In this document: positions 7,000 to 15,920 of the stretch, piece after piece | How the letters are laid out: the number at the start of each line of letters is the position of its first letter | How positions within the stretch are numbered: position 1 is the first letter of the stretch | From: Lachnospirales bacterium | GTDB taxonomy: Bacteria; Bacillota; Clostridia; Lachnospirales; CAMZNU01 | Reading direction: 5' to 3' | Assembly: GCA_047974615.1 (NCBI GenBank) | Contig: JBKECM010000109.1 | Span: 1-44,221, forward strand | Length of the DNA: 44,221 bases | Translations under genes and position numbers: made by a program | Notes under the pieces: model-generated | The model's database searches: none | The model's input: the letters and a program-made list of their open reading frames with translations, nothing else | What the model was told of the DNA's origin: nothing

Positions 7000-9153
7000 A
7001 TGGATAAAAATAATGTAATTATTGATGTTTTGGTTAAAGAATTTAGTATTAAAAGAGAGTTTATTGAAAATGTAATAAATCTTTTAGGTGAGGGAAACAC
7101 TATACCTTTCATTGCACGATATAGAAAAGAGTTAACCGGCTCAATGGACGACCAAGTGCTAAGAGAGTTGCATGATAGATTTGTATATTTAACAAATTTA
7201 GAAGAAAAGCGTGAAAATACAATTAAACTAATTAACGAACTTGAACTTCTAACTCCTGAAATTGAGTTAGCTCTTATAAAGGCTAAAACACCAACGGAAA
7301 TTGATGATATTTATAGACCTTTTAGACCCAAAAGAAGAACAAAGGCAACTATAGCAAAGGAAAAAGGTCTTGAACCTTTAGCAAATATCATTTTTTTACA
7401 AGAAACAAAAGAAAACATTTTAGAAATAGCAAAAGAATATATTGATATTGAAAAAGAAGTAAACAATGAGGAAGAAGCTGTAAGCTATGCTTTAGATATT
7501 ATTGCAGAAACAATATCCGATGATGCAGATATACGAAAAAATATACGTGAATATACTTTTAAAAATGCTTTAATCGAAACTTCAAAAAATGTAGAAGAAG
7601 ATACAGTTTTTGATATGTATTCTGAATTTATTGAAAAAACAGATAAAATAGCAGGACATAGAGTTTTAGCCATAAATCGTGGTGAAAAAGAAAAAGTATT
7701 ATCAGTTAAATTAAACATTGAACTTGAGGACGTTTTAAGACTTATAAAAAGTTCTGTTTTAAAAAATAATCAAAGCACAAATGAATATATAGAAACCGCT
7801 ATTTTAGATAGTTATAAACGTTTAATTTCACCTTCCATTGAACGTGAAATTAGAAATGATTTAACAGAAGTTGCAGAGGAATCGGGTATAAAACTTTTTG
7901 GTAAAAATTTAAAACAATTACTTATGCAACCTCCTGTAACAAAAGTAACAGTATTAGCTCTTGATCCTGGTTTTAGAACAGGATGTAAAGTTGCAGTTAT
8001 TGATGATTTTGGCAAAGTTTTAGAAACTGGAGTTGTTTATCCTACTGTACCTCATAAAAAAATAGCTGAAACTATTGATACGCTTTCAAAAATCATTGAT
8101 AAGCATAAAGTAAATCTTTGTGCTATAGGTAACGGCACTGCAAGTCGTGAAACAGAGGCAGTAGTTGTACAAATGATTAAAGAAAAGACACCAAAACTTC
8201 AATATTGTATAGTTAACGAGGCTGGTGCGTCTGTTTATTCGGCTTCAAAACTTGGGGCAGAGGAGTTTCCTGAATATGATGTTGCCTTACGTTCGGCAGT
8301 TTCTATAGGTAGACGATTACAAGACCCTATGGCAGAACTTGTTAAAATAGATCCTAAATCGATAGGAGTAGGGCAGTATCAACACGATATGAATCAAAAA
8401 AAATTATCTGAAACCTTAGGTGGTGTTGTTGAAGATTGCGTAAATTCAGTTGGAGTTGATATTAACACTGCTTCCCCTTCGTTATTAGCCTATGTTTCAG
8501 GTTTATCAAAAGTTGTTGCAAAAAATATCGAAACGTACCGTTTAGAAAATGGAACGTTCAAAAGCAGAAAAGAGATTTTAAAAGTTGCAAAACTAGGGCC
8601 AAAAGCTTTTGAGCAATGTGCAGGATTTTTACGTATACGTGATGGTGCAAATCCACTTGATAATACTTCTGTCCACCCTGAAAGCTACGATATAGCTACA
8701 GCTATATTAAAAGAACTTGGATATGCTACGAGTGATTTATTTGAAAACAAAATAAAAATTAATTTGGACAAAAATAAAATAATTAAGTTAAGTGAATCAT
8801 TAAATGTGGGTGTACCAACAATTAATGATATAATAAACGAGCTAAATAAACCCGGTCGTGACCCACGTGAAGATATGCCAAAATCTATTTTAAAAAGTGA
8901 TGTTTTAGATATAAAAGATTTAACAGTAGGTATGGAATTAACTGGTACTGTTAGAAATGTTATTGATTTTGGTTGTTTTGTTGATATTGGAGTTCATCAC
9001 GATGGCTTAGTACATATATCAGAACTTTCAAATAGTTTTGTAAAGCACCCTTCAGATGTTGTAGCAGTAGGAGATATTGTAAAAGTTAGAGTTAAAGATG
9101 TTGATATAAAAAAAGAAAGAGTTGCTTTATCTATGAAAGGTATAAATTTATAG
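7000..9153 (+). CDS. tex: Tex family RNA-binding protein with C-terminal S1 domain
   Basis: TIPFIARYRKE, DPGFRTGCK, GVGQYQHD, FGCFVDIGV. Confidence 0.95.
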   Translation: MDKNNVIIDVLVKEFSIKREFIENVINLLGEGNTIPFIARYRKELTGSMDDQVLRELHDRFVYLTNLEEKRENTIKLINELELLTPEIELALIKAKTPTEIDDIYRPFRPKRRTKATIAKEKGLEPLANIIFLQETKENILEIAKEYIDIEKEVNNEEEAVSYALDIIAETISDDADIRKNIREYTFKNALIETSKNVEEDTVFDMYSEFIEKTDKIAGHRVLAINRGEKEKVLSVKLNIELEDVLRLIKSSVLKNNQSTNEYIETAILDSYKRLISPSIEREIRNDLTEVAEESGIKLFGKNLKQLLMQPPVTKVTVLALDPGFRTGCKVAVIDDFGKVLETGVVYPTVPHKKIAETIDTLSKIIDKHKVNLCAIGNGTASRETEAVVVQMIKEKTPKLQYCIVNEAGASVYSASKLGAEEFPEYDVALRSAVSIGRRLQDPMAELVKIDPKSIGVGQYQHDMNQKKLSETLGGVVEDCVNSVGVDINTASPSLLAYVSGLSKVVAKNIETYRLENGTFKSRKEILKVAKLGPKAFEQCAGFLRIRDGANPLDNTSVHPESYDIATAILKELGYATSDLFENKIKINLDKNKIIKLSESLNVGVPTINDIINELNKPGRDPREDMPKSILKSDVLDIKDLTVGMELTGTVRNVIDFGCFVDIGVHHDGLVHISELSNSFVKHPSDVVAVGDIVKVRVKDVDIKKERVALSMKGINL

Positions 9154-9212
9154 CTTTATATAAATAATAAAGATAAATCCTTTATTTTAAAAGTTAATTT
9201 TTCAGCACTTAT

Positions 9213-9252
9213 AAAACAAGGTATATAATTTTATTTTTATATACCTTGTTTT
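9213..9252 (+). terminator. intrinsic terminator after tex
   Basis: AAAACAAGGTATATAA / TTATATACCTTGTTTT 16-bp inverted repeat followed by T residues. Confidence 0.75.
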
Positions 9253-9318
9253 TATTGAAAAAATATGTTAAAATATAAACAATCTTATGGATTAAATAAA
9301 ATTATTGGAGGAACAGAT

Positions 9319-10467
9319 ATGGCTAGAATGATTTTAAACGAAACATCATATTTTGGTAAAGGTGTTATTTCCGAGGTAATAACAGAAGTTAAAAGACGTG
9401 GATTTAAAAAAGGCTTTGTTGTTACTGACAAAGATTTAATAAAATTTGGTGTAACAAAAAAAGTTACAGATCTTTTAGATTCTGCAAATTTGGTATATGA
9501 AATTTTTGACGAAGTAAAAGCTAACCCTGCAGTTTCAACAGTTAAAAATGGCGTTGAAAAATATAAATTAAGTGGTGCAGATTACTTAATAGCTATAGGT
9601 GGGGGTTCTCCTATTGACACTTCAAAAGCAATCGGTATTATAATTAACAATCCAGAGTATAGCGATGTAGTAAGTCTTGAAGGACTTGCACCTACAAAAA
9701 ATAAATCTGTTCCTATTATAGCTATTTCTACAACTGCTGGTACTGCTGCAGAAGTTACAATAAACTATGTTATTACTGATGAAGAGAAGAAACGCAAATT
9801 TGTATGTGCAGACCCACATGATATTCCTGTAGTTGCTATAGTTGATAGCGATATGACCTCAAGCATGCCTAAAGGACTAACTGCTGCAACTGGTATGGAC
9901 GCATTAACACATGCTATAGAAGGTTACATTACACCGGGTGCATGGGAAATGAGTGATATGCTTCATATAAAAGCTGTAGAGATTATTGGTCGTTCTTTAA
10001 GAAAAGCTGTTGAAAATGATCCAAAAGGTCGTGAAGATATGGCACTTGGTCAATATATTGCAGGTATGGGATTTTCAAATGTTGGTCTTGGAATTGTGCA
10101 TTCTATGGCACATGCACTTGGTGCTTTTTATGACACACCACATGGTGTAGCAAACGCTATGTTACTACCAACTGTAATGGGATATAATGCAGAAGCAACA
10201 GGCGAGAAATATAAGGACATTGCCAAAGCTTTAGGTGGCGACGTTACAAATCTTTCCCAAGAAGATTACAGAAAACTAGCAGTTAATTTAGTACAAAAGT
10301 TATCTGATGATGTTGGAATTCCAAAAAGTTTAAAAGAAATTGGAGTTAAAATTGAAGATTTAGATGACTTATCAAAAACTGCTTTTGATGATGTGTGCAC
10401 TGGTGGAAATCCAAAAGCTACTAGTGTAGTTGATATTAAAGCTTTATATGAAAGTTTATTGAAATAA
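9319..10467 (+). CDS. fucO: iron-containing alcohol dehydrogenase, lactaldehyde reductase type
   Basis: RMILNETSYFG, GGGSPID, DALTHAIEG, HSMAH, PHGVANA; start reassigned to ATG 9319 behind GGAGG. Confidence 0.85.
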   Translation: MARMILNETSYFGKGVISEVITEVKRRGFKKGFVVTDKDLIKFGVTKKVTDLLDSANLVYEIFDEVKANPAVSTVKNGVEKYKLSGADYLIAIGGGSPIDTSKAIGIIINNPEYSDVVSLEGLAPTKNKSVPIIAISTTAGTAAEVTINYVITDEEKKRKFVCADPHDIPVVAIVDSDMTSSMPKGLTAATGMDALTHAIEGYITPGAWEMSDMLHIKAVEIIGRSLRKAVENDPKGREDMALGQYIAGMGFSNVGLGIVHSMAHALGAFYDTPHGVANAMLLPTVMGYNAEATGEKYKDIAKALGGDVTNLSQEDYRKLAVNLVQKLSDDVGIPKSLKEIGVKIEDLDDLSKTAFDDVCTGGNPKATSVVDIKALYESLLK

Positions 10468-10572
10468 TAAGATAATAATAAAAGTATATTTAAAGTAATT
10501 AATTAAAAGTATTTTAGATGAGATTGTTAAAATTTGATATCTTTGATAAAAAATAAAATTTTATGGAATATT

Positions 10573-10614
10573 AAAAAAGCTTTATACGAATTATTTTTCG
10601 TATAAAGCTTTTTT
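10573..10614. terminator. bidirectional intrinsic terminator between convergent fucO and ABC ATPase
   Basis: AAAAAAGCTTTATACGAA / TTCGTATAAAGCTTTTTT. Confidence 0.85.
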
Positions 10615-10630
10615 GTCTTTATTTTAATAA

Positions 10631-11353
10631 TTACAAAACTTGTGAAATGAATTGCTTAGTTCTTTCTTGTTTTGGATTTTGTAACACTTCTTCAGGTGAG
10701 CCTTCTTCAACTATATACCCATCTGCCATAAAAACTACTTTATTTGAAACTTCACGAGCGAAGCCGAGTTCGTGCGTTACAATAATCATACTTATATTTA
10801 AAGCCTTTAAAGATTTTATAACTTCAAGAACTTCCTTTATTACTTCTGGATCTAAAGCAGACGTGGGTTCATCAAATAATATAAATTCAGGTTGCATACA
10901 TAAAGAGCGTGCTATTGCAACCCTTTGTTGCTGACCTCCTGAAAGTTGTTTTGGGTAAGAATTTTCTTTGCCTAATAAACCAACTTTATCTAAATATTCA
11001 AGTGCCAATTCTTTTGCATCAGTTTCACTCTTTCCTAAAACTTTTATAGGGCCTAAAGTTAAATTTTCAAGTATAGATAGGTGAGGGAATAGGTTAAAAG
11101 ATTGAAAGACAAAACCCATTTTTGCACCAAATTCATCTGAAATTAATCTATCATGTGAAATTTCTTCTCCGTCATAAAAAATTTTTCCTGAGTTTTTCTC
11201 TTCAAGACCTTTAATACATCTTAATAAAGTAGATTTTCCAGAACCTGAGGGACCAATGATACACATTATATCACCGATTTCAACATCTAAACTTACATCT
11301 TTTAAAACTTCAAGTTTACCATAATTTTTTTTAATGTTTTCAAGTTTAATCAT
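10631..11353 (-). CDS. polar amino-acid ABC transporter ATPase (GlnQ/ArtR type)
   Basis: GPSGSGKST, LSGGQQQRVAIAR, FDEPTSALDPE; probable start MIKLEN at 11353. Confidence 0.93.
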   Translation of the reverse strand: MIKLENIKKNYGKLEVLKDVSLDVEIGDIMCIIGPSGSGKSTLLRCIKGLEEKNSGKIFYDGEEISHDRLISDEFGAKMGFVFQSFNLFPHLSILENLTLGPIKVLGKSETDAKELALEYLDKVGLLGKENSYPKQLSGGQQQRVAIARSLCMQPEFILFDEPTSALDPEVIKEVLEVIKSLKALNISMIIVTHELGFAREVSNKVVFMADGYIVEEGSPEEVLQNPKQERTKQFISQVL

Positions 11354-12014
11354 TGTTTGCGTATCTCCTTTCCAACTTATGCGAAAAATACGTAACAACA
11401 CCTGTCATTATTAAATAAATAATTGCTGCAAAAACAAGTGGCCAAATAAATTCAGCTGTTTTTGAACTAATAACTTTTGATCGTCCTAAAAGTTCAAGTC
11501 CTCCTATTGCAAAAATCAAAGAGGAATCTTTGATAAGCATAATAAATTCAGATACGAATGGAGGAATTAAACGTCTAAAAGCTTGTGGTAATATAATAAA
11601 CTGCATAGTCTGTTTATAGTTAAGGCCTAAAGTTTTTGCTGCTTCCCATTGTCCTTTATCTATGCTTTCTATACCAGAACGAATAAGTTCAGCAGAGTAT
11701 GCACCGGAGTTTATACCTATGGCAATAATACCAACTATAACAGGGTCCATTGAAATTCGTCCACCAGTTATTGCTGTATAAATAGTAGGAAAACCTAAAA
11801 ATAAAAACATAATTTGTAAAAGCATAGGCGTTCCACGTACAAATTGAATATACACAAAGGCAAATCCATTTAAAATTTTGTTCTTACTTATACGCATTGC
11901 TGCAAAAATTGTACCTAATAGTACGCCTATAATAAGTGCACCTATTGCAACCAATATAGAAAAACCGGCACCTTGCAATAAATATATAAGATTTTCTGTA
12001 TTAAATACACTCAT
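11346..12014 (-). CDS. polar amino-acid ABC transporter permease (HisM/GlnP type)
   Basis: RGTPMLLQ, AELIRSGIESIDKGQWEAA, ILPQA. Confidence 0.93.
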   Translation of the reverse strand: MSVFNTENLIYLLQGAGFSILVAIGALIIGVLLGTIFAAMRISKNKILNGFAFVYIQFVRGTPMLLQIMFLFLGFPTIYTAITGGRISMDPVIVGIIAIGINSGAYSAELIRSGIESIDKGQWEAAKTLGLNYKQTMQFIILPQAFRRLIPPFVSEFIMLIKDSSLIFAIGGLELLGRSKVISSKTAEFIWPLVFAAIIYLIMTGVVTYFSHKLERRYANND

Positions 12015-12015
12015 A

Positions 12016-12768
12016 TTATAAACCGTACTTTTCTAATAAAGCTTGATATTCATCTGTTTCCATAAAAGTTGCTAAATGTTTGTTAAGTTCAGCAGCTAAA
12101 GCTTCATTTTCTTTTTCAAAAACCATTGACATTTCTTCAGATTGTATTTTCTCTTCTAACATAATATAGTTTCCTGTAGCAACAGCGTTTTGTGCTACAC
12201 CTAGATCACAAATATATGCATCTAATTGACCTGCGTTAAGCATAGGTAATGCAACATCAGTGTCAACTAACGTTAGGTCTGTACTTAATGTTTCCGCTAC
12301 GCTTTCACCTGTTGTGCCAAGACCAGCACCTAAAATACCGTCTTTTAGTTCATCAACTGAAGTAATAGCTGAGGCTTTAGGAAGTAGAGCAACTTGAGCA
12401 CTACTATAATATGCATCGCCAAATAAGATTAACTCTTTTCTTTCTTCAGTAACTGAAATACCACTCATACCTAAGTCATACTGTCCTGACTGTACAGCAG
12501 GTATAATTAAGTCAAAGTCAAGTGCTGTATATACAACTTCAAGGCCAGCAAGTTCAGCTACTTCATTAAGTAAGTCAATGTCAAAACCAACCATTTCTGT
12601 TCCGTCCATATACTCAAAAGGAGCATAAGTTGGGTTTGTTGCTGCATAAATTTTACCATCTTCAATAAGACCAAGTTCATTTGTTGTAGTAGTTGATGTG
12701 TTGCCACATGCTGTTAGTGTTCCTAAAGTTAATACAGTTAACAAAGATATTGATAATAATTTTTTCAT
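12016..12768 (-). CDS. amino-acid ABC transporter substrate-binding lipoprotein (SBP_bac_3), probably arginine/basic amino acid
   Basis: Lipobox LTAC, YAPFEY, GFDIDL, TEERKE; start MKKLL at 12768 behind GGAGG. Arginine specificity is inferred only from linkage to argGH and the Arg leader. Confidence 0.88.
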   Translation of the reverse strand: MKKLLSISLLTVLTLGTLTACGNTSTTTTNELGLIEDGKIYAATNPTYAPFEYMDGTEMVGFDIDLLNEVAELAGLEVVYTALDFDLIIPAVQSGQYDLGMSGISVTEERKELILFGDAYYSSAQVALLPKASAITSVDELKDGILGAGLGTTGESVAETLSTDLTLVDTDVALPMLNAGQLDAYICDLGVAQNAVATGNYIMLEEKIQSEEMSMVFEKENEALAAELNKHLATFMETDEYQALLEKYGL

Positions 12769-12772
12769 AATT

Positions 12773-12826
12773 AAATCCTCCAAATTTTAAAAAATAATTT
12801 TGTTTTAATCTTAAAATTGAGAATTT
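12773..12826 (-). promoter_or_regulatory. SD-sequestering hairpin of the binding-protein gene
   Basis: mRNA AAAUUCUCAAUUUUAA (12826-12811) pairs with UUAAAAUU[UG]GAGGAUUU (12790-12773): 8+8 bp with a 2-nt bulge. Confidence 0.6.
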
Positions 12827-12876
12827 TGCCGTAATATTAAGGGGAAAAGTTTCATTAAATTCAATTTTGTTATCAT
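12811..12876 (-). CDS. putative 21-aa leader peptide MITKLNLMKLFPLILRQNSQF upstream of the ABC operon
   Basis: AAGGAGG (12889-12883) 6 nt before the ATG; only Arg is CGG at codon 16; 3' end overlaps an anti-SD arm. Confidence 0.7.
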   Translation of the reverse strand: MITKLNLMKLFPLILRQNSQF

Positions 12877-12905
12877 AATTTTCCTCCTTATTTTTGATTT
12901 TATAT

Positions 12906-12934
12906 AGTATATCATTATTTAAAATAAATTTCAA
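12906..12934 (-). promoter_or_regulatory. sigma-A promoter for leader plus ABC operon
   Basis: TTGAAA-17 nt-TATACT with extended TG. Confidence 0.65.
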
Positions 12935-13031
12935 CAATAAATTTGATTTTTTTTGTAAAAGTTTTTTGCTAATAATGTTTGTTATAAAACTTTTTATATA
13001 ATTTCCATAAAACTATTTGTATATTTTTATA

Positions 13032-13060
13032 TTTACAACTTTTAAAATACGTGTTACAAT
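13032..13060 (+). promoter_or_regulatory. sigma-A promoter for leader plus argGH
   Basis: TTTACA-17 nt-TACAAT with extended TG. Confidence 0.65.
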
Positions 13061-13094
13061 TAAAATAAGTTTTATTTAGGAGGTATAATATTAT

Positions 13095-13160
13095 ATGTAT
13101 GTAAGAAATAAATATAATGTAAAGTTCCAAAAATATATTGGTATATTTAAACTGCGGTAA
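13095..13160 (+). CDS. putative 21-aa leader peptide MYVRNKYNVKFQKYIGIFKLR upstream of argG
   Basis: AGGAGGT at 13078-13084; last sense codon is CGG (13155-13157) followed by TAA. Confidence 0.7.
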   Translation: MYVRNKYNVKFQKYIGIFKLR

Positions 13161-13217
13161 TGAAATTTTTATGAAAATTATATTAAACAAATTTAAAATA
13201 TTATGGAGGTTTCATTA
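13158..13217 (+). promoter_or_regulatory. SD-sequestering hairpin of argG
   Basis: UAAUGAAAUUUUUAUGA (13158-13174) pairs with UUAUGGAGGUUUCAUUA (13201-13217): 17 bp including 5 G-U pairs, covering the SD and the A of AUG. Confidence 0.7.
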
Positions 13218-14434
13218 TGAAAAAATATAAAAAAATCGTTTTAGCTTATTCTGGTGGTCTTGATACATCTGTTATTATTCCTTGGTTAAAAGAAAATTAT
13301 GATGGTTGTGAAGTTATCGCCGTTGCTGGTAATGTGGGACAAGCTGATGAACTTGATGGTTTAGAAGAAAAAGCACTTAAAACTGGTGCATCAAAATTAT
13401 ATATTGAAAATTTAACTGAAGAATTTGTAAATGAATATATTATTCCTACTGTAAAAGCTAATGCAAAATATGAAAATAAATATTTACTTGGTACTGCTTT
13501 TGCTAGACCTTTGATTGGTAGAAGAATAGCTGAAATAGCTTTAAAAGAAGGTGCTGATGCAATAGCTCATGGCTGTACTGGTAAAGGAAACGATCAAGTT
13601 CGTTTTGAACTTGCTATTAAATCTGTTGCTCCTGAAATGGAAATTATTGTACCATGGAGAATTTGGGACATTAAAGGTCGTGATGAAGAAATAGCTTACG
13701 CAAAAGAAAAAGGTATTCCTTTAAAATTCTCTGCAGAAAATAGCTATTCTCGTGATAGAAATATATGGCATATTTCTCATGAAGGTTTAGATCTTGAATT
13801 TCCTGAAAATGAACCAAACTATGAAACATTACTTCAACTTGGTGTTTCGCCTGAAAAAGCGCCTGATGTTGCTACTTATATATCTTTAGATTTTGAAAAA
13901 GGAGTTCCTGTTGCTGTTAATGGTGAGAAAAAAACTGCTACAGAAATTTTAACATACTTAAATGAAATAGGTGGTAAAAATGGTATTGGTATCATTGATA
14001 TAGTTGAAAACCGTTTGGTAGGTATGAAATCTCGTGGCGTTTATGAAACACCGGGTGGAACTATTCTATATCACGCACATAGTGTTTTAGAAGAACTTTG
14101 TTTAGATAGACAAACTATGCACTTTAAGCATGGTGTTGCTATTAAATTTTCTGAAATTGTTTATGATGGGCAATGGTATACACCTTTAAGAGAAGCATTA
14201 TCTGCTTTTATTGATAAAACTCAAGAAAAAGTAACAGGACAAGTTAAACTTAAATTGTATAAAGGCAATATTATAAATGCTGGTGTTATTAGTCCTTATT
14301 CTTTATATTCAGAAGAAATTGCTACGTTCAATGAAGATGAAGTTTACAATCAAAGTGACTCTACAGGTTTTATAAACTTATTTGGTTTACCTATTAAAGT
14401 TGCAGCGTTACTTGAGCAAAAAAAATTAAAATAA
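13217..14434 (+). CDS. argG: argininosuccinate synthase
   Basis: [40 protein letters not shown]. Confidence 0.98.
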
Positions 14435-14549: not shown

Positions 14550-15920
14550 ATGAAACTTTGGGACGGAAGATTTTCTAAAAACGCAAGTCAAGAACTAAAT
14601 GATTTTAACTCTTCAATTTTTTTTGATAAGAGAATGTATAAAGAAGATATATTAGGCTCTATTTCACATAGTAAAATTCTTGTTATTACAAATATTATTA
14701 CTATTGAGGAATCGGAAACAATAGTTAAAGAACTTGAAAAAATTTTGAGTGATATAGAAGAAGGTAGTTTAGATATTGATTTAACAGCTGAAGATATTCA
14801 CTCTTTTGTGGAAATGGAACTTACAAAAAGAATAGGTGATATAGGAAAAAAACTTCATACTGGTAGAAGTAGAAATGATCAAGTAGCCGTTGACATAAGA
14901 TTATATTTAAAAAACGATGTAGTTGAAGTAATTCAAATGCTTAAAAATTTAATCAATGTAATTTGTGACAAAGCAAATAATCATAAAGAAACAATTATGC
15001 CTGGCTATACACATCTTCAACGTGCTCAACCTATTACTTTTGCACATCACATACTTGCATATGGTTCAATGTTTTTACGTGACATTAAACGTCTTGAAAA
15101 TGCATTGGATAATATGAATTATTCTCCTCTTGGTGCTGGTGCACTTGCAGGTACTACATATAATATTGATAGAGAATTTACTGCAAAACAACTTGGGTTT
15201 TTTGGCCCTACAATTAATAGTTTAGATAGTGTATCAGATAGAGATTTTTCTATGGAAATTTTGTCAGCCTTGTCAATTACTATGGTACATTTGTCAAGAT
15301 TTTCTGAAGAAATAATTATGTGGTGTTCTTGGGAATTTAAGTTTATTGAACTTGATGATGCTTTTTCTACGGGTTCTTCTATTATGCCTCAGAAAAAAAA
15401 TCCAGATATAGCTGAACTTGTTCGTGGTAAAACGGGACGTGTTTTTGGCGACCTTATGTCAATTTTAACCGTTATGAAAGGTTTGCCACTTGCTTATAAT
15501 AAAGATATGCAAGAAGATAAGGAAGGCGTTTTTGATGCTTTAGACACAGTGAAAATGTGTCTTTTAGCTTTTACTCCTATGATTGACACAATGAAAATCA
15601 ATGAAGAAAATATGAGAAGTGCTGCTGCTAAAGGTTTTATAAATGCAACAGACTGTGCTGATTATCTTGTAAAAAAAGGCTTAGCTTTTAGAGATGCTTA
15701 CAAAATTGTAGGTAAGTTAGTTTCTTATTGCATTGAAAATAATAAAATTTTAGAAAATTTAACAATGGAAGAATATAAAAATAATTCTGAAATTTTTGAC
15801 AATGATATATATGAAAATATTTCTTTATATAAATGTGTAAACGAAAGAAAATCATTTGGTGGTCCTTCAAAAGAGTCTATTGAATCACAAATTAAATTTT
15901 TATTAAATTCTTTAGCTTAG
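14550..15920 (+). CDS. argH: argininosuccinate lyase
   Basis: [43 protein letters not shown]. Confidence 0.98.

Follow-up and report, generated by a model that had tools for sequence, protein, structure and literature searches.

How is arginine supply regulated in a lineage in which no arginine repressor is detected? Arginine biosynthesis is a textbook case of control by the repressor ArgR, and to our knowledge there is hardly any documented case of arginine genes under the control of a leader peptide. The question is raised here by a stretch of DNA of 44,221 nucleotides (nt; the window, 29% GC) from contig C140 of the Clostridia-like draft genome G000 (97.4% complete), in which the argininosuccinate synthase gene argG and the genes of an ATP-binding cassette (ABC) transporter diverge from a spacer of 433 nt. 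The ArgR domains PF01316 and PF02863 have no match in the draft genomes of G000, of its sister species G001 and of G002, a member of the next genus; the controls of this search responded, and PF01316 matched in G007, which belongs to the same order. Each half of the spacer contains a small open reading frame (ORF) with a single CGG arginine codon and, directly behind it, a hairpin that masks the Shine–Dalgarno (SD) sequence of the next gene. We hypothesize that the RNA before argG controls arginine supply as a hungry-codon translational attenuator, a reading that we consider probable and hold with moderate confidence, limited because the comparison covers two species only.

The argG leader is introduced by the SD sequence AGGAGG at 13078 to 13083 of the plus strand, 11 nt 5' of an ATG. 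The ORF that follows (13095 to 13160, plus strand) comprises 21 codons, encodes MYVRNKYNVKFQKYIGIFKLR and ends in CUG-CGG-UAA, with the CGG, the proposed sensing or 'hungry' arginine codon, at 13155 to 13157 and the stop codon TAA at 13158 to 13160. The last base of the CGG and the stop codon form the beginning of the 5' arm of a stem (13157 to 13174), and the 3' arm of this stem (13201 to 13218) contains the SD sequence GGAGG of argG (13205 to 13209) as well as the AU of its start codon; argG itself occupies 13217 to 14434 of the plus strand and encodes a protein of 405 amino acids (NF001770, 591.5 bits, cut-off 334). Beside the argG start codon, 13158 to 13165 form eight Watson–Crick pairs with 13210 to 13217, and all four G residues of the SD sequence pair with U, as does A13207. 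Both the ORF ending in CGG-TAA and the pairing of 13158 to 13174 with 13201 to 13217, with G-U pairs at the four SD residues and eight Watson–Crick pairs by the start codon, had been described in a first-pass annotation of this DNA, and both are present in the sequence as claimed there. RNAfold extends the stem by the pair G13157.U13218 to 18 pairs and adds a small inner hairpin.

The stem had been called marginally stable. It is rich in AU and GU pairs, yet the 76-nt stretch from 13150 to 13225 folds at -14.4 kcal/mol, compared with -6.0 +/- 2.2 kcal/mol for shuffled sequences (z -3.9; 0 of 200 shuffles as good), which is not really marginal. For the 176-nt stretch from 13065 to 13240 the z score is -2.0, with 9 of 200 shuffles as good. 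The reverse complement of the hairpin reaches -2.9 kcal/mol (z 0.22; 110 of 200 shuffles as good). Because it contains G.U pairs and its reverse complement lacks a fold, the structure is specific to RNA of the plus strand and is not a DNA palindrome, which agrees with the RNA role proposed earlier. When the region from -70 to +15 was folded for all 457 genes of G000 that have a GGAGG SD sequence, argG ranked fourth for sequestration, with a mean unpaired probability of its SD of 0.004 (median of all genes, 0.52).

What, then, could open this stem? We modeled a ribosome parked on the leader, its A site occupied by CGG, by folding only the RNA 3' of its leading edge, placed at +17 or +14. In these 3'-only folds, the unpaired probability of the argG SD is 0.72 (+17) or 0.45 (+14), compared with 0.00 in the free RNA, and the energy of the hairpin goes from -14.4 to -2.7 kcal/mol with the ribosome parked. 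The earlier suggestion that a ribosome holding CGG in its A site would open the stem is supported by all computational tests run. We infer that the leader is translated, that ribosomes stall at its CGG under arginine limitation and that this stall raises argG translation. The argGH mRNA would begin with the 21-codon leader, the last sense codon of which is CGG, and in the naked RNA the region of the CGG and stop codon would pair with the SD and start codon of argG, so that argG is poorly translated. Any ribosome at the end of the leader would melt the outer stem, and the time for which the stem stays open would be set by the wait for Arg-tRNA at the CGG. With ample arginine, the ribosome would pass, terminate and leave, and the stem would re-form. 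When arginine or charged tRNA-Arg(UCG) is scarce, the ribosome would sit at the CGG with the SD exposed and other ribosomes could start on argG, initiation not being blocked since the stalled ribosome would lie about 50 nt from the argG SD.

The codon on which this model turns is the rarest sense codon of G000, accounting for 32 of 452,910 codons in 935 ORFs of at least 300 amino acids (0.07 per 1000 codons, or 0.26% of arginine codons), and CTG, which directly precedes it in the leader, is the third rarest. In the sister species CGG is again the rarest codon, with one occurrence among 37,125 codons of a 200-kb sample. The tRNA-Arg anticodons found by aragorn in G000 are ACG, UCG and UCU, without CCG, and the same set was obtained for G001, where aragorn was run on 30 loci from 34 tRNA matches with two long matches left out. 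Because no tRNA-Arg(CCG) was found in either draft, CGG would be read only by tRNA-Arg(UCG) through U.G wobble. Non-coding DNA of G000 contains 1047 CGG triplets on both strands over 383,016 positions, so that about one is expected per 433-nt spacer; by arithmetic from this count, the chance of a CGG in a 21-codon frame is about 3%.

A second leader precedes the divergent transporter genes on the minus strand. This ORF (12811 to 12876) also comprises 21 codons, encodes MITKLNLMKLFPLILRQNSQF, has the SD sequence AAGGAGG at 12883 to 12889 and carries its CGG as codon 16 (12829 to 12831). The 5' arm (12826 to 12809) of a second anti-SD hairpin (12773 to 12826, minus strand) begins 3 nt past this CGG, and its 3' arm (12792 to 12773) takes in all but one of the five transporter SD bases (GGAGG, 12781 to 12777); the stem is present in the minimum-energy fold. 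In 3'-only folds the unpaired probability of the transporter SD is 0.44 (+17) or 0.42 (+14), compared with 0.20 in the free RNA. If this leader of like design controls the transporter in the same manner, arginine synthesis from citrulline and uptake would rise together.

A genome-wide scan of G000 for SD-led small ORFs upstream of a gene (8 to 45 codons, outside long ORFs, no more than 200 nt 5' of a gene on the same strand) returned 56 ORFs, four of them with a CGG, and two of these four are the argG and transporter leaders. The third is an artefact inside a selenoprotein-like (GrdB-like) coding region and the fourth, likewise an artefact, is a TTG frame within a hairpin before an unrelated protein of 1084 amino acids. 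On contig C118 of G000 (about 8680 to 10600, plus strand), upstream of a gene for a BCCT-like transporter, an in-frame TGA stands in a TxxCxxC-like context of what appears by eye to be a GrdB-like selenoprotein, and the genome has a tRNA-Sec (anticodon UCA). Among the 457 SD sequences, sequestration is strongest for that of a minus-strand gene on contig C144 (start index 4431), where UAGGAGGUU is paired to a perfectly matching anti-SD, AACCUCCUA, in a hairpin of -21.5 kcal/mol.

Are these features retained in relatives? The family comprises four genomes, three of which have ArgG, and the sister species G001 is the one informative relative. Its ArgG is 84% identical to that of G000, and its argG is preceded by an SD-led leader, LNNFFNKYSAIPFYFDLKVKLRCRKSL, with the same AGGAGGTAT and 11-nt spacing as in G000. 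The island AAACT(G/A)CGGT is common to both argG leaders, and within it the Leu codon before CGG shows a synonymous change from CTG to CTA. The ortholog of the transporter gene (76% identical) is preceded by the leader MELYKTISLLPSGLRCFIF, and the unpaired probability of its SD is 0.55 (+17) or 0.57 (+14) with the modeled ribosome, compared with 0.21 in the free RNA. All four leaders, for two genes in two species, contain exactly one CGG, directly after a Leu codon, and in their minimum-energy folds the SD-masking helix begins within -1 to +3 nt of the 3' end of the CGG, while the bases that pair with the downstream SD lie at +3 to +14 nt. In all four, the SD is more often unpaired with the modeled ribosome in place (+17) than in the free RNA. 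Overall, the leaders of the two species are identical in 94 of 195 and 91 of 200 aligned columns. The argG stems were compared by anchoring on the SD; MAFFT misplaced the 5' arms and the RNAalifold consensus was meaningless. From SD to start codon, 13 pairs are common to both species, of which nine are identical, one has a one-sided change (G.U to G-C) and three have double changes. The covariation check that had been proposed for this stem, as far as two species allow, finds all 13 pairs kept and none broken.

Several observations weigh against the attenuator. The comparative support comes from a single sister species, in which the argG leader has the start codon TTG and the argG SD, with an unpaired probability of 0.04 in the free RNA and 0.39 with the edge at +17, reaches only 0.18 at +14. 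G002 keeps the divergent layout of transporter and argG, but its spacer has no CGG, and no recognizable SD-led leader was seen on either strand. When the whole leader is folded with the ribosome footprint alone masked, the SD partly re-pairs with the upstream leader (unpaired probability 0.26 to 0.53), so that the predicted opening depends on the upstream RNA being occupied; we assume that following ribosomes cover it in the cell. The argG leader has a single sensing codon and not a run, its only other arginine codon being the common AGA at codon 4. The tRNA sets of both drafts are incomplete, and a tRNA-Arg(CCG) may exist. The transporter hairpin (-10.4 kcal/mol, z -0.7 to -0.8, 44 of 200 shuffles as good) is at chance level, and the transporter SD is just moderately sequestered (rank 55 of 457). 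Promoter-like sites, too, are no more frequent than chance predicts for this AT-rich region (6 seen, 6.7 +/- 2.8 expected). A look-up of public sequencing runs for this DNA returned none, which counts neither for nor against the reading. Finally, so rare a codon would be slow even with ample arginine, which could make the opening of the stem largely constitutive.

This last point belongs to an explanation by constitutive translational coupling, in which a ribosome at the leader stop codon opens the stem or is handed on, so that the translation of argG follows that of the leader, arginine is not sensed and the CGG is incidental or provides a fixed dwell time. Termination itself would open the stem, as the 5' arm includes the stop codon, the mask extends 3 nt further once CGG has moved to the P site, and a codon of this rarity would be slow at any arginine level. 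Also, upstream ORFs of Escherichia coli alter downstream expression without amino-acid sensing being shown; argL, for instance, overlaps argF and affects its expression, its function being unclear (10.1101/511675). We regard such coupling as unlikely, since it leaves unexplained why the genome's two genuine CGG leaders stand before just these genes, an operon for arginine synthesis and a transporter for amino acids, and since CGG is kept in all four leaders while neighboring codons drift and is not the final codon in three of them.

The same four leaders bear on the possibility that the stem is a plain inhibitory or stabilizing 5' hairpin, which damps argG or is opened by temperature, a protein or a small RNA, and that the small ORFs are untranslated chance frames. 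Short ORFs are abundant in AT-rich intergenic DNA, about one CGG is to be expected in the spacer anyway, and one of the two hairpins is no better than chance. However, both ORFs have strong, properly spaced SD sequences that are conserved in the sister species, CGG occurs in four of four leaders at a chance of about 3% per frame, every CGG stands at the foot of a helix, and the change in the Leu codon that precedes the argG CGG is synonymous. Hence, we consider a plain hairpin quite unlikely.

A third explanation replaces starvation sensing by substrate induction. If the leader encoded an arrest peptide that senses a ligand, as TnaC and SpeFL do, the nascent chain together with a small molecule such as citrulline, ornithine or arginine would stall the ribosome at the Arg-stop junction and thereby open the stem. 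SpeFL and TnaC arrest at this kind of junction, and the argG leader does end in Arg-stop. In addition, the upstream part of the arginine pathway is seemingly missing: ArgJ and a clear ornithine carbamoyltransferase (OTC) were not found in G000, where the two OTCace_N matches resemble aspartate carbamoyltransferase (scores of 355.7, above the equivalog cut-off of 263, and 241, below it). As far as the draft shows, argGH may be the only arginine-pathway genes of G000 and arginine may be made from imported citrulline, so that induction by citrulline would make sense. The sister species has a clear OTC (locus L081). Against an arrest peptide, the four leader peptides have only Leu-Arg in common, although a short motif could escape notice among four sequences; they are 19 to 27 residues long and differ in the residues after the Arg, which is not last in three of them. 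In these four leaders the codon is conserved and no peptide motif beyond Leu-Arg is seen, and we hold this mechanism to be very unlikely.

Leader peptides of amino-acid operons are classically used in transcription attenuation, and it has to be asked whether the position of the ribosome here controls premature termination, intrinsic or Rho-dependent, and not the start of argG translation. A scan of 12700 to 13400 gave no intrinsic terminator, and the sole strong helix before argG ends in the SD and AUG without a U-run; in the G001 argG leader, a GC hairpin is followed by AUAUUUAGG and not by a U-tract. A scan of 12600 to 13400 against Rfam 15 (E <= 10) gave four matches, all far under the gathering scores and irrelevant (miRNA, snoRNA, IS009). 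Hence, neither a terminator nor an Rfam family supplies an alternative mechanism. Rho-dependent sites are unreadable from sequence, and a relative in the same order has a candidate attenuator: at locus L004 of G007, in a region about 223 to 20 nt 5' of argG, an SD-led ORF, MLNLNVAVTSQVNVLGLRRRMQALVSCVFSEGE, has three consecutive arginine codons (CGC CGC CGU), and behind it a long GC/AU hairpin with a U-run stands before argG (folded as L004:2712-2990, minus strand; -89.2 kcal/mol, z -5.9). This element resembles the classical transcription attenuators that use a leader peptide, here for arginine, and G007 has ArgR as well. For the window itself, we consider termination control highly improbable.

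If, then, initiation at argG is the step that the leader probably controls, how far does the element extend? As far as can be seen from the sequences compared, it is confined to the genus. A contig scan for closer relatives returned 36 loci with a best ArgG identity of 75%, the nearest named ones being Oscillospiraceae/Clostridia metagenome-assembled genomes, and a scan of metagenomes returned 11 loci; upstream of the best of these (81% over a partial match), the DNA is ARG-box-like and lacks a CGG leader. At the spacer locus of G002 (L097, on G002:C60), the remaining arginine genes lie downstream, with ArgJ and OTC on the same contig, and no ArgR was found in this draft. The pattern CTRCGGTRT was rejected as a leader signature, since its 8 to 27 matches per genome (G000 to G003) are below those of the reversed-pattern control.

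Arg-rich upstream ORFs were looked for at 71 argG loci. The '...QRRR' tails of Acidimicrobiia were rejected as comparable leaders because they are the argG SD (CGGAGG) read in frame and in part the end of an ArgR-like gene. At the Acidimicrobiia-like loci L065, L066, L070, L072 and L075, a conserved ORF about 50 nt 5' of argG, MTSM[KR]RL[GD]GASEQRRR followed by a stop codon, starts at the stop of the ArgR-like gene and overlaps the argG start with its end, its terminal RRR being the argG SD in frame; at L056 to L062, the QRRR tail is fused to the ArgR-like protein. CGG-bearing small ORFs 5' of argG are also listed at L016, L035, L041, L042, L053, L063 and L071 to L074. One or more palindromes resembling TGTATAATTATACA or TGCATAATTATGCA, as expected for ArgR operators, were seen by eye at or near the argG -10 box at most of the loci L005 to L064, which come from the same order and from other Clostridia. 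No TGTATAATTATACA-like ARG-box palindrome was seen between 12784 and 13216 of the window, as judged by eye against the ArgR operator consensus and without a formal scan.

The argininosuccinate lyase gene argH (14550 to 15920, plus strand; 456 amino acids; TIGR00838, 641.7 bits) follows argG, and the two presumably share one transcript. Its putative start lies near 13067 of the plus strand, as implied by a predicted sigma-70-type promoter, TTTACA-17-TACAAT with TG, at 13032 to 13060 (10 of 12 consensus matches); another promoter match, at 13060 to 13089, overlaps the leader SD. A predicted promoter for the transporter leader, TTGAAA-17-TATACT with TG (10 of 12 consensus matches), lies at 12906 to 12934 of the minus strand, and the transcript predicted there would start near 12899. 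The divergent genes, all on the minus strand, encode the substrate-binding protein of a polar-amino-acid ABC transporter (12016 to 12768), a permease (11346 to 12014) and an ATPase (10631 to 11401). The best family for the binding protein is the Lys/Arg/Orn-binding TIGR01096, with an E value of 3.4e-34 and 118.5 bits, below the cut-off of 256 bits, so that the substrate of the transporter is not established.

A wider hypothesis, which we offer tentatively as possible but doubtful, is that CGG has been nearly purged from proteins (0.03 to 0.07 per 1000 codons in the two species) and is kept as a dedicated regulatory signal at the foot of SD-masking helices. argGH and uptake would then form an 'arginine ribulon' that replaces repressor control in a genus without ArgR, with one wobble-read codon as the arginine sensor. 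If the proposed control is real, a lineage without detected ArgR would regulate its arginine supply by a single rare codon within some 140 nt of RNA, extreme codon rarity would itself be a regulatory resource, the 'ribulon' idea would extend from Actinobacteria to Clostridia, and the element would be a compact and portable arginine-responsive translational switch.

How does such an element compare with known systems? In the attenuators of the trp, his, leu, thr and phe operons, a leader ORF rich in codons for the product couples ribosome speed to alternative RNA folds. These systems have codon runs, an antiterminator and a terminator, whereas here there is one codon and no terminator, and the output would be access to an SD. 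In cat/cmlA and ermC, the leader ORF overlaps the 5' arm of an SD-masking hairpin, which is opened by a stalled ribosome. The two-segment layout before argG resembles the cat/cmlA type. However, in cat/cmlA and ermC an antibiotic acts with the nascent peptide to stall the ribosome, whereas here we propose a lack of charged tRNA at a rare codon.

In a full-text search of a limited literature collection, no arginine leader that unmasks an SD was found, either before argG or before a transporter of arginine; the related cases were only argL, orf34-speF and rbfL, none of which activates arginine synthesis by SD unmasking. In Staphylococcus aureus rbfL-rbf, the leader peptide senses arginine limitation via the rare codon AGG (0.15% usage, scarce tRNA), toeprints were obtained at Arg codons and the step under control is the start of translation on the gene that follows (Kohl et al., Nat Commun 2026, PMC13009471). 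The polarity described there is opposite, since the paused ribosome occludes the ribosome-binding site (RBS) and represses a biofilm regulator, whereas here it would unmask the SD and activate genes of arginine supply. Translation of the upstream ORF of Salmonella orf34-speF helps unfold an RBS-sequestering structure, and low-arginine pausing at Arg codons changes the mRNA fold (Ben-Zvi et al. 2019, PMC6386406). That system differs in having two consecutive Arg codons in a 34-codon ORF, in acting through Rho termination and RNase G-dependent stability and in its target, ornithine decarboxylase. The actinobacterial LEU element is likewise a candidate leader ORF with regulatory codons in a stem with the SD of a biosynthetic gene, but in that case a pseudoknot forms in which the run of Leu codons is itself the partner of the SD, and the authors doubted a leader-peptide mechanism; in front of the arginine operons of Actinobacteria, the same survey found no conserved RNA element (Seliverstov et al. 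2005, PMC1262725). The mycobacterial 'Cys ribulon' is similar in that small upstream ORFs contain codons for the pathway's own amino acid and several loci follow one design, and ribosomes stalled at the Cys codons of polycysteine leaderless small ORFs block RBS-sequestering structures of the next gene (Canestrari et al., 10.1101/834739). The mechanism proposed here matches that of the Cys ribulon, which, like rbfL, gives it an experimental precedent. While the Cys ribulon was tested experimentally and uses a run of Cys codons on leaderless mRNAs of high-GC Actinobacteria (10.1101/834739), the system proposed here is predicted and would use one codon, the rarest, for Arg, in SD-led leaders of a Clostridia genome with a GC content of 29%.

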